A program made the position numbers and the translations under genes. Of a stretch of DNA of 64,000 nucleotides, positions 1-63,480 are shown one piece after another. The notes beneath the pieces were generated by a model. That model worked only from the letters and a program-made list of their open reading frames with translations, made no database searches and had not been told where the DNA came from. Source of the DNA: Bilabrum cf. latius (taxonomy: Eukaryota); NCBI GenBank assembly GCA_965178125.1, contig OZ237757.1, positions 620,001 through 684,000 of the forward strand, read 5' to 3'. Numbering within the stretch: the stretch's first letter is position 1; each line of letters begins with the position of its first letter.

Positions 1-3000
1 CCTCCCACACGACTCTGATTTCCACAGCGGACAGCACCTGCAGCGCAACAGCTGCTGGGGGCCCAGGCACTCGCATTCGCGGGATGGCTGAATGTGTCGC
101 GGCATATGGTCCATCGCCCCTGTCATTTGTTGCCAAAATCCTCACGTAGTAGCGCTGCCCTGATGTGAGACCGTCAATGTTAGTGTAGAACTGGCGCTCG
201 CTGCGCGCAGTTGAACTCGTGATCGTAATTGCTGCAGGGTCGTCCACCACCACGCTATAGTCAGACACGTTTTGATCCACGAAAGACTCGCTTAGCGACC
301 ACTATACGAGGTACTAGAATACGGGAGAACCACCATCCTACTAGGGGTACTGCCACGATAGCTTGAGCGACGTATCGGAAAGCACGTGTAGTGCGGATAC
401 CCTCGGAGCGCCAGGCGCCGTTCGCGGCAGTTCGAATCGGGGGTGGGTGAACGTGGATGGTCCGAATCCATTCAATGCATTCTTCGCAGCGACTCGAACT
501 CCGTAGGCACGTCCTGCTTCCAGCCCCCCCAGCTAAACCGTGTACAAACTGGTGGAGCCAACTGCTTCTAGCTATACTACAGCATAGTCACGAGGAAGCA
601 CGCCTGTCTGAACGACAGCAACCTCAGCGTCTGCTCCCGGACCAGTGATCGCAGAGGTGGAAATCTCTAGCGTTGGAACATCTCCAAGTTCCCCGACAAA
701 GGTGACAACCCAATCGTACCCCAACCCATTCGCGCGTCGCACAACAGACACATCAGACACGGCAGCAAGAGCTTCAAGGCGGTTCTCAAGCATATCTGAA
801 GAAGCCTCCACATCGATGAGTTCCGTGCGCTCCCCACGGAAACCTAGCTCAAAGTACCCGCCAATTGGCTTCTATCCCTGTCTCTCGGTTACAACGGAAG
901 CAACCACATTTGTTCCTGACCAGCTGGTTCCAGGTAGCGTGATCATCTCTGGCACATCTCCCACGTGTGCCGTCTCTATGAACGTGATGCGCCAGTTGAA
1001 GCCGTTCCCGGATACCCATACGGAGTAGTCGCCCTACACTGGCCCGTTCCATGTGCCAGGCTGTAGCGCAGCATTAGGATCAGCTGCCTTTGACAGGACG
1101 AACGAATCAGCACCTCCAGCACCTGCGGATCCAGGCGCTCTAGAAGCATCTGATGTCACTATGAATGTGTTGGCTGTCTCCGAGTCTGCATGGTCAAAGG
1201 CAGTCAAAAGTCGGACTGCAGTGACCCCGGGCTGAAGAGCAATTGTATCAACAGTGCTATCCAGACGCGTCACATGCACGAATCCAGTGCCATTAGTTGG
1301 GTCGATTTCCTGGCGGGCCCTGTACAGGCCAGGCAGTCTCTTCCACGACGGTGTTCTAACGACCTCAACGTTCTGCACAGAACCAGTCCTCTCCAGGATT
1401 GCTTCCAGCTGACTGGCGGTGGCATCGTGCGGGATGTCTTCAGACACCTCCGAGCCAAACTGTACTCTGAAGCTGCCCTGGATATCATTCAAGTCTGCTG
1501 TCGTGCTCACAACCTGCACTTCTTCCACTCCGGACGGGCGGGCGGTCCCAATCGCGCGCGCTATTGCCGACACAGTGATCACCTGGACTTCATAAACAGG
1601 TTCCGACGCGAAACGTTCAACCCTGTATGACTCAACTGGACTGCCACCATTGTCCGATGCCGCTGAAAACTACACTTGGAGCTGGGCTGCACTTGCAACG
1701 GATAGTTGGGGGCTCAATACTGGCCCTGGCTGGGTTGAAACGAGTACTCGAGCACTCGACTTCGCTCCAGTGCTTGCACCCCTGCTGTTAAATGCGGTCA
1801 CACGTGTGGAGTAGCCATTGCCACTCTCCAGCTGGTTGACGACCACTCGTAATGGGTTGGTCCCGCGCACCAACTCACTAGCGAACCCACGCACGTTCAT
1901 TCCGATGCAACCGGAGGTATCGACACCCATGATGCCGAGATTTCCGGCACCTCGTACAGTCTCGTGGCTTGTGTGAGCGAATTCAACCTTCCATTGGTAG
2001 CCATCGCGAGGTCCATTCTGGATCGCACGCCTGGTCACAGACGTTGCATGAATAGTCGGTAGCCTCTACAGTGCACTCCGAAGCTCTTGGGCCGAGACGT
2101 CGCCTGGCAATGGCTGCGTTCTGTGGCCCTCAAACTCAACAACAAACGTGGATGTTTCGTTAAGCAGGCCGACTGAGTCAACCACGATTGCCTGCACTTC
2201 TCGAGTGAACGAGCCGGGCACCAGATCGGCATTGCCATCTTGTACACCCCGTACTTCCACCTTGCCACCCCTGCCTAGTAGAGTGGATCCATCTACCAGC
2301 AGCAAGCCGATATTTCCGCGCGGCTCGTGCATGGTGATCGCCCATCTGTATCCGTTGGCATACGGCTTGCGCTGTACCTCGACAGCATCAACAGCTCGTC
2401 GGTACGCCCCGGTCAGCTGCTCGATTTCAAGCTGCACGTCTCTGTGGCTTGCATCCCAGCGCAAACGATCAGAAACGATTCCGCCGTACTGTATTGTCCA
2501 GTATCCACCACGTCCATTCGACGAAGCAAATGAAGTCTCAATCACCTGAATTTCCGGCAACAGCTCGATGACGCTGCTGCCATACGTGGATGTCCTAGTA
2601 CTGAACATGCTGTCGCTGTCCCACTCGACCAGATACTTGGTAATAGGTTCTCCACCATCCGTGTCAGGTTCGCTGTAGAAGACCTCGATTTCCGTACCGG
2701 TTCCAAGATTATTCGCGAATACTCCTACCGGTTGAGCAGGAACAAATCCGATTGAGGGAGTCGTCACACGCACTGACCCAGCTGGAACCATGTTGTCCGA
2801 CATGCCGCCTTCGACTGACACGGATCTGACATTAACGGTGTACGTCGAGTTTTCCTTCAATGACGTGTATCCGGGCCAAGTTCTGGCGTTCATGTTGGAT
2901 TCGATGGCAATACGGCTAACAACCTTTGGCTTCTCAGATAGCGTGGCATTGGGACTTGCCAGTGCGATCGCACAGTTCGTCTCCGTTGCCTCATAGTCTA

Positions 3001-62900: not shown

Positions 62901-63480
62901 CCTGGCCTTCCACGAGCTGCTGATGCTGCGGAGCTGGAACGTGGTGGGTCTGGAGCAGGAGGAGCCCTACGGCGAGATCGAGATCGGCAAGGGGCCCCGC
63001 TTCGACAGCTCCTGCGGGGCACTCGACGCGGGAGCGGCTGCGGCTCGTGCTGCCGCGCTGGCTCCTGCGTCTGCGTCTGCGTCTGCGGTGCGGCCCTCGG
63101 GGGGGAGCGGGGACGAGGCCCCGGCAGTCCGAGGAGCCTCCTCGTCGTCATCGTCGTCTTCTGCTGCCGCTGCATCGTCATCGTCTTCCGGTTCCTCCTC
63201 GCGCCGTCGCCGCGCCTCTGCGCCCGCTACCGAGTCCAAGTCGGATGGCGAGCAGGAGGATGAGGAGGAGGAAGGGCAAGGCGGTGGGGAGGATAAAGAC
63301 GTTGAAGCTGATGAGATGGCTTCTAGCAGGGGCCGCAGCATGCTGGGGAAGAAGCGTGCGCGCCCTGGCAAGTCAGCATCTGCGTCCGGAGGTGGAGGGT
63401 CCAGGCGTAGCCGGGGCAAGGGTAAGAAGGGTGCTTCGGGAGGAAGAGCGCCCACTCGCAGAAGTTCCAGGGTGAGGTGA
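59982..63480 (+). CDS. RAD21: Cohesin kleisin subunit Rad21/Scc1 (Rad21/Rec8 family), about 980 aa, 4 exons
   Basis: Exons 59982-60014, 60275-60365, 60526-60817, 60954-63480 (GT-AG). N-terminal MFIS*FTLTSRSQLGRVWQAGHYDKKL...[37 protein letters not shown]; C-terminal winged helix RRLAALAFHELLML...QEEPYGEIEI; candidate separase site DLEVMR near 61180. Three TAG (59994, 62125, 62617); ends TGA. Confidence 0.9.
61342..62396 (+). repeat. 116-bp internal duplication in RAD21 (61342-61457 and 62281-62396)
   Basis: Both copies encode GDGFGDDGFGGGFGDADMGGVGGGFEDDIGDGFGMGMDG and differ at three synonymous sites. Confidence 0.9.

Follow-up and report, generated by a model that had tools for sequence, protein, structure and literature searches.

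Results

Reading frames and gene content of the window

The stretch of DNA analyzed here (the window) comprised 64,000 nucleotides of contig OZ237757.1 from the Bilabrum cf. latius assembly GCA_965178125.1, and its guanine-cytosine (GC) content was 58%. The codon under study was TAG, a stop in the standard code, which stood in frame in eight of the nine genes found. With all three standard stops in force, the longest frame of the window was 762 codons. When TAG alone was read through, a minus-strand frame of 12,660 codons opened at 2..37981, which contained 128 TAG and neither TAA nor TGA. The off-frames of the same stretch held 61 and 71 TAA and 169 and 401 TGA, and the long frame was therefore not a product of chance or composition. 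Reading through TAA only left the maximum at 762 codons, and reading through TGA only gave frames of at most 1,197 codons. The TAG-only change also opened seven further genes, located on both strands. The nine gene models, one of them free of TAG, amounted to 19,046 codons with 164 TAG, 506 CAG, 188 CAA, no TAA and no internal TGA, so that TAG made up about 0.9% of all codons and 19% of the putative glutamine codons. The features of the window were as follows.

2..37981, minus strand: giant open frame with filamin repeats, fn3 and PA14; 12,660 codons, 128 TAG; 3' end beyond the window
338..343, minus strand: tandem TAG-TAG in the giant gene
39768..42761, plus strand: SET-domain histone methyltransferase-like gene; 997 codons and TGA; TAG at 40344, 41103, 42132 and 42432
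43034..44073, minus strand: mitochondrial ribosomal protein bL21m; 309 codons and TGA; two exons, intron 43822-43931
43987-43989, 43933-43935 and 43604-43606, minus strand: the TAGs of bL21m, all three within spliced contigs
44795..48241, plus strand: FG-GAP (integrin-alpha-like) repeat protein with a C-terminal membrane span; TAG at 45026, 45101 and 45950; TGA end
48859..50778, plus strand: DDE_1 transposase; 5 in-frame TAG; TGA end
51213..55601, plus strand: LCAT/PDAT-family acyltransferase with long low-complexity inserts; 11 in-frame TAG including the tandem 53406-53411; TGA end
55908..56669, minus strand: orphan gene with no Pfam match; 7 in-frame TAG; TGA end
57147..59445, plus strand: sulfatase, TAG-free; introns 57431-57593, 57679-57864 and 58258-58410; TGA end; start codon uncertain
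59982..63480, plus strand: RAD21/Rec8 kleisin; 980 codons and TGA; introns 60014-60273, 60364-60523 and 60818-60953
59994-59996 (codon 5), 62125-62127 and 62617-62619, plus strand: the TAGs of RAD21

Pfam searches of the gene models were made with TAG translated as glutamine (Q), and the domains ran on across the in-frame TAG sites. The presence of conserved domains on both sides of the TAGs, which an initial annotation of this DNA had claimed from the letters alone, was reproduced by the recovery of SET, Ribosomal_L21p, FG-GAP, DDE_1, LCAT, Sulfatase, Rad21_Rec8_N and Rad21_Rec8. Its TAG counts for the smaller genes were the same as ours (SET 4, bL21 3, FG-GAP 3, transposase 5, PDAT 11, orphan 7, RAD21 3, sulfatase 0), and its figure of more than 60 for the giant gene rose to 128 in the recount. 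Both tandem TAG-TAG pairs (338-343 and 53406-53411) and the single sites that it had quoted at 30488, 22259, 28913, 45026 and 59994 were all present in the sequence. All eight complete genes ended in TGA, also as annotated, and none of the eight in TAA, in a sample too small to tell a rare stop from an unused one. The statement that the genes were interrupted only by TAG was correct for the spliced messages; in the genomic DNA, the bL21m, sulfatase and RAD21 genes also contained one, three and three introns, respectively. The bL21m presequence, described earlier as acid-free, contains one Asp, at residue 6, if the first ATG is the start. The nuclear and eukaryotic nature of the DNA was evident from GT..AG introns removed in transcripts and from the genes for RAD21, a SET-domain protein and a bL21m with an N-terminal extension.

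TAG codons in spliced contigs

Fifteen public runs contained part of the region 42900-52800, and four of them (X1, X5, X6 and X7) were compared with the window contig by contig. X5 and X7 belonged to study P2 and X6 to study P3; X1 is possibly the run from which the window itself was derived. Runs with small shares (0.06-0.15), such as those labeled “algae metagenome” and “lake water metagenome”, were not used as evidence for a habitat or host. The X1 contigs were colinear with the window and ran straight through all seven intron intervals (43822-43931, 57431-57593, 57679-57864, 58258-58410, 60014-60273, 60364-60523 and 60818-60953). The contigs of X5, X6 and X7 were joined across these seven intervals, which had GT..AG ends (CT..AC for the minus-strand gene). 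Once the exons were joined at these introns, bL21m, the sulfatase and RAD21 each read as one uninterrupted frame (309 codons for bL21m, 980 for RAD21), and the X5, X6 and X7 contigs were therefore taken to be spliced messages.

The spliced bL21m contigs, which joined 43148-43821 to 43932-44039, covered all three TAGs of the gene with zero differing letters. The spliced RAD21 contig of X5 entered exon 1 by 80 bases and covered the TAG at codon 5, again with zero differing letters. An X5 contig of 4,256 bases corresponded to 51321-55576 and included all 11 TAGs of the PDAT-family gene with no differences. Spliced contigs from two further studies thus kept the TAGs unchanged, which agreed with the expectation that UAG is present unedited in the RNA. 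Within the limits of contig evidence, this excluded editing, errors of assembly and the decay of pseudogenes.

The introns of the window were 110-260 bases in length and, at the cut positions given by the contig comparison, started with GTGAG or GTAAG and ended with CAG, usually GCAG. Only seven of them were found in approximately 57 kb of coding sequence. In two low-complexity segments, 45950-46050 and 60900-61000 (Ser/Thr/Pro-rich and Gly/Ala-rich), the summed contig depth of X1 reached 883, and spurious long-range contig joints, for example from 46015 to 60913, were repeat cross-matches and not rearrangements.

Relatives sharing the code identify TAG as glutamine

A search of 1.84 billion representative proteins with residues 3851-5050 of the giant protein returned 901 matches. 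Among the relatives of the giant gene was L001, a metagenome contig of 5,810 bases with 52% GC, which was open over 1,936 codons with 20 TAG, no TAA and no TGA. The L001 protein aligned end to end with residues 3047-4985 of the giant protein at 55% identity. The alignment contained 4 TAG-TAG pairs and 40 pairs of TAG with another codon, and the partners of these 40 TAGs were Q in 14 cases (CAG 9, CAA 5), followed by S 6, V 4, A 4, D 3, L 2, R 2, T 2, M 1, E 1 and P 1. True glutamine codons in the same alignment were paired with Q (27%), TAG (11%), S (10%) and A (9%), and the self-pairing of Ser, Glu and Ala was 46-53% (Ser 46%, Glu 48%). The 40 partners were scored with the partner tables of the L001 alignment itself, and sites were resampled for the bootstraps. 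The log-likelihood was -94.1 for Q, -116.1 for S, -123.1 for A and -125.6 for E, with a background of -114.0. Q won in 9,860 of 10,000 bootstraps, S in 131 and E in none. The probability of at least 14 Q among 40 partners was 0.30 if TAG means Gln, 7e-10 if Glu, 1e-11 if Ser and 5e-13 if Leu.

A second and nearer relative was represented by protein fragments 87-95% identical to the window, five of which came from a further search. These covered nine TAG sites of the window, where the relative had Q five times, E twice, and H and L once each, and six of the fragment ends adjoined window TAGs. The PDAT fragment P0157 (88% identical) had Q at the single conserved TAG site, 823, and ended at TAG site 854. 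The short proteins of the near relative are pieces of a TAG-containing orthologue made by a standard-code gene caller. More generally, the genes of this clade appeared in public protein collections only as fragments cut at TAG (P0002, P0009, P0014, P0046, P0161-P0165 and P0157), with lengths of 98-205 residues for the giant gene. Both relatives, about 90% and about 55% identical, occurred in several assemblies (Logan, ENA and JGI). The comparison with relatives sharing the code was decisive, and TAG almost certainly means glutamine. The central claim of the initial annotation, a sense codon that most likely specifies Gln, was upheld by L001, by the near relative and by the TAGs kept in the spliced contigs.

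Paralogous repeats, motifs and distant homologues

The paralogous repeats of the giant protein had first been put forward as the argument for Gln. When all aligned pairs were summed, Q was the best residue (log-likelihood -1994.5, compared with -2011.3 for S). When each site counted once, Q won 1,285 of 2,000 bootstraps at 30% identity or more. Tested statistically, the argument was only weakly informative. Two motifs of the giant protein modestly favored Q. Of 47 occurrences of E[IV]x.[IVL], 23 had Q and 2 had TAG at the middle position, and the corresponding counts for F.[IV]x[ATLV][RK]D were Q 3, TAG 1 and E 1. In the columns of TAG sites, no preference was seen among 87 distant homologues, in which Q came first in 2,752 of 5,000 bootstraps without a useful margin. 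Judged from these alignments, the TAG codons occupy positions that are variable among distant relatives, as would be predicted for codons that appeared once UAG had been reassigned.

TAA, TGA and the proposed decoding

CAA made up 27% of the CAR codons (CAA and CAG) in the window and 48% in L001, where 33 CAG and 30 CAA were counted beside the 20 TAG. If TAA were read like TAG, the window should contain about 60 TAA and L001 about 18; none was observed in either. UAA was not a sense codon, and since TAA was absent despite common CAA, only UAG had been captured. Three features of a table-15-type code were found in the window, namely in-frame UAG in expressed conserved genes, UAG as Gln on comparative grounds, and UAA outside the sense codons.

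The complete absence of TAA as a sense codon suggests a tRNA-Gln with the anticodon CUA. Such a dedicated tRNA-Gln(CUA) would be derived from tRNA-Gln(CUG) by a single anticodon change, and it would read UAG and not UAA, which would keep TAA out of the coding sequence. The release factor eRF1 would have lost efficient recognition of UAG and retained that of UGA. Reading of UAG without UAA is stated to require a CUA anticodon, and effective reassignment is thought to need an eRF1 that does not release at UAG (PMC5304391). Candidate eRF1 changes described in the same source are T32G in GTS of Iotanema and an Ala at the Leu69 position of the rhizarian exLh (PMC5304391). No eRF1 gene was found by Pfam among the gene models of the window.

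Affinity, extent and age of the change

Twenty distant homologues of the giant protein and P0001 were looked up; four carried organism names, and three of these four were stramenopiles. The homologues of Tribonema minus and Phaeothamnion confervicola were colinear with the giant protein over more than 1,100 residues. The other named homologues were from Nothophytophthora sp. and from Gefionella okellyi, the latter a repeat-level match only. In a tree of the colinear region, a long stem (1.77) carried the window together with L001, and the group of Tribonema and Phaeothamnion did not include them. For the SET domain, the best matches with an organism name were plants (Solanum and Musa), followed by ants, at about 40%. 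A word search with the PDAT-family protein gave three matches, with Rhodotorula as the best named one (45%), and a search with the sulfatase exon led to bacterial sulfatase clusters. The best solved match of bL21m was chain 6xyw_Ar (1.2e-22), which we take to be a chain of a plant mitoribosome. By sequence comparison, the sulfatase, PDAT, SET and bL21m matches and the giant-protein tree gave no placement. The earlier description of the genome as stramenopile-like was weakly supported by the three of four named homologues and received nothing from the other genes or the tree, and a stramenopile affinity may be taken as a lead.

Amoeboaphelidium, an algal parasite known for its unusual code, was considered as a candidate and rejected. 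Its published assemblies have 40.5% and 39.9% GC (PMC10608142), compared with 58% in the window. In addition, TAA as well as TAG is cited as a Gln codon of this genus (PMC6299283), whereas TAA was never sense in the window.

The use of TAG as a sense codon was common to the window organism, its approximately 90%-identical relative and the 55%-identical L001 lineage. Because at least two relatives share the code change, it predates their split. Colinear homologues at about 30-33% identity (P0001, P0004, P0007, P0008 and P0011) were uninterrupted standard-code predictions of 4,000-6,500 residues. These five lacked in-frame TAG, and the reassigned clade is therefore bounded on the outside.

Further features of the genes

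The 5' end of the giant frame was uncertain, because the frame opened within a domain; its first ATG was codon 123, at 37612. The giant gene is larger than this frame, which extends without an intron over at least 12,660 codons, and an upstream exon is probable. A blastx search of 37900-39800 against the giant protein for such an exon returned the known frame only. The FG-GAP protein contained eleven FG-GAP repeats according to Pfam, and a PDB search with it led to integrin alpha chains and was uninformative on the code.

The contig depth of X1 over the DDE_1 region (48591-51288) was 170-190, approximately three times the 58-64 of its neighbors, and X5 and X7 contigs covered the region. The DDE_1 transposase looks like a multi-copy, expressed element. 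It carried five in-frame TAGs and was therefore resident under the code in which TAG is sense. The PDAT/LCAT homologue was 1,462 residues in length, swollen by low-complexity inserts that held most of its 11 TAGs, and the LCAT profile matched it in three separate stretches. The last exon of RAD21 (60954-63480) contained two copies of a stretch of about 40 residues rich in Gly, Asp, Phe and Met. The copies lay within long acidic low-complexity inserts, located between the N- and C-terminal Rad21 domains.

Discussion

With high confidence, we assign the window to the nuclear genome of an intron-poor, GC-rich (58%) eukaryote whose UAG codon has changed completely from a stop to glutamine. Several observations weigh against this reading or parts of it. 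The assignment of Gln was comparative and not proteomic. The near relative had a residue other than Q at four of the nine TAG sites of the giant gene, and P0157 had N, S, R and S at four TAG sites, which lay in a poorly aligned acidic insert. When the 95 sites of the paralogous repeats were counted once each, Q (-272.6) was close to T (-274.6) and, without any threshold on identity, won 823 of 2,000 bootstraps. Restriction to the 25 sites at 35% identity or more gave 599 wins to E, 555 to C and 375 to Q. In the 87 distant homologues, all below 50% identity, the log-likelihoods over 22 TAG sites were -65.1 for Q, -65.4 for S and -65.5 for E. The TAA stop of a table-15 code was seen in none of the eight complete genes. 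ARAGORN found no tRNA gene in the window, and the parts assigned to tRNA-Gln(CUA) and eRF1 are pure inference. Finally, the public records listed no run as RNA; the RNA label of X5, X6 and X7 was a guess, with X5 given as “probably DNA”, and their RNA nature rested on the spliced joints.

TAG could be sense and specify another residue, such as Ser, reported for Scotinosphaera, Glu, known from some ciliates, or Leu, known from exLh; we consider this improbable. Ser was the second-best class in the L001 test, with 6 of the 40 partners, and was nearly level with Q in the columns of the distant homologues, and Glu was present at two of the nine near-relative sites and came first in the smallest subset of paralogues. 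Against these, the L001 test placed Q ahead of S by 22 and of E by 31 log-likelihood units, S and E won 131 and none of its 10,000 bootstraps, and the excess of Q had a probability of 7e-10 or less under Ser, Glu or Leu. The TAG codons were paired with S in 15% and with E in 2.5% of cases, far from the self-pairing of genuine Ser (46%) and Glu (48%).

It is slightly less probable still that UAA and UAG both mean Gln, as in the table-6-type codes of Amoeboaphelidium and several ulvophytes, and that TAA is merely rare. The ending of all eight genes in TGA and of none in TAA is the pattern described for ulvophytes with UAR (UAA and UAG) read as Gln (PMC8271138). This explanation is opposed by the counts of 0 TAA to 164 TAG in the window and 0 to 20 in L001, although Gln codons ending in A were common, and the GC content of the window was unlike that of the Amoeboaphelidium genomes (PMC10608142). 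The last explanation, in which the TAGs are not translated as written owing to assembly or sequencing error, RNA editing to CAG, pseudogenes or leaky readthrough, is hardly credible: nothing was found in its favor except that the RNA status of X5, X6 and X7 was itself inferred, whereas contigs of three studies, two of them independent of the likely source run, matched the window at the TAGs, spliced contigs retained them, 164 TAG with no TAA or TGA in frame is impossible by decay, the frame and four TAG positions were conserved in the 55%-identical orthologue L001, and readthrough of 128 stops cannot give a protein.

Reassignment of UAG alone to Gln has been described for Iotanema spirale, Protocruzia tuzeti and two phyllopharyngean ciliate lineages (PMC5304391, PMC11687900), to Leu for the rhizarian exLh and one phyllopharyngean lineage (PMC5304391, PMC11687900), and to Ser for Scotinosphaera (PMC8271138). 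UAR is read as Gln in several ulvophyte orders, hexamitids, oxymonads, many ciliates and Amoeboaphelidium protococcarum (PMC5304391, PMC6299283, PMC8271138). The fornicate Iotanema spirale shares with the window the table 15 pattern, in which UAG alone is Gln, UAA is not sense and tRNA-Gln(CUA) is the predicted decoder, but UAA is described as its dominant stop (PMC5304391), whereas the eight complete genes of the window all ended in UGA and no UAA terminator was seen. The window also differed from Iotanema in being GC-rich, in encoding a mitochondrial ribosomal protein with a presequence, and in that the named relatives of its giant protein were mostly stramenopiles and not metamonads. In Protocruzia tuzeti and the phyllopharyngean lineages, UAG is likewise Gln and UAA is not reassigned to Gln (PMC11687900), but the window lacked ciliate traits, with a 38-kb gene, a contig of at least 64 kb, high GC and introns of 110-260 bases. 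The UAR-to-Gln codes resemble that of the window in the change from stop to Gln and in TGA as the working terminator, and differ in TAA, which was never sense in the window (0, compared with 164 TAG). Scotinosphaera and exLh resemble it in the uncoupling of UAG from UAA in a non-ciliate nuclear genome, but their amino acids, Ser and Leu, were both rejected for the window by the L001 test. The literature search found no nuclear UAG reassignment reported for a stramenopile or for a GC-rich non-ciliate lineage of this kind, with subscription journals and supplements largely outside its reach, so that a report may exist.

The code is thus of a known type, in what appears to be a new lineage for the change of UAG to Gln. 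We tentatively propose, as a possibility that falls somewhat short of even chances, that this was an independent and unreported UAG-to-Gln change in a clade allied to the stramenopiles and comprising three or more lineages, with UGA as the sole terminator and UAA unassigned or nearly unused.

Nuclear code changes outside the ciliates are few, and changes that uncouple UAG from UAA are rarer again. A further UAG-only case would matter here for a GC-rich lineage with both DNA and transcript data and with at least two related environmental lineages sharing the code. Standard-code callers already cut the genes of this clade at every TAG, and their annotation needs the right code. The relatives sharing the code, together with the distant homologues in the standard code, would provide a datable comparative system for the changes of eRF1 and tRNA-Gln that take place when only UAG is captured. 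If true, the capture of UAG with UAA neither sense nor a regular stop would be an intermediate state, and would bear on how the coupling of UAA and UAG is broken.

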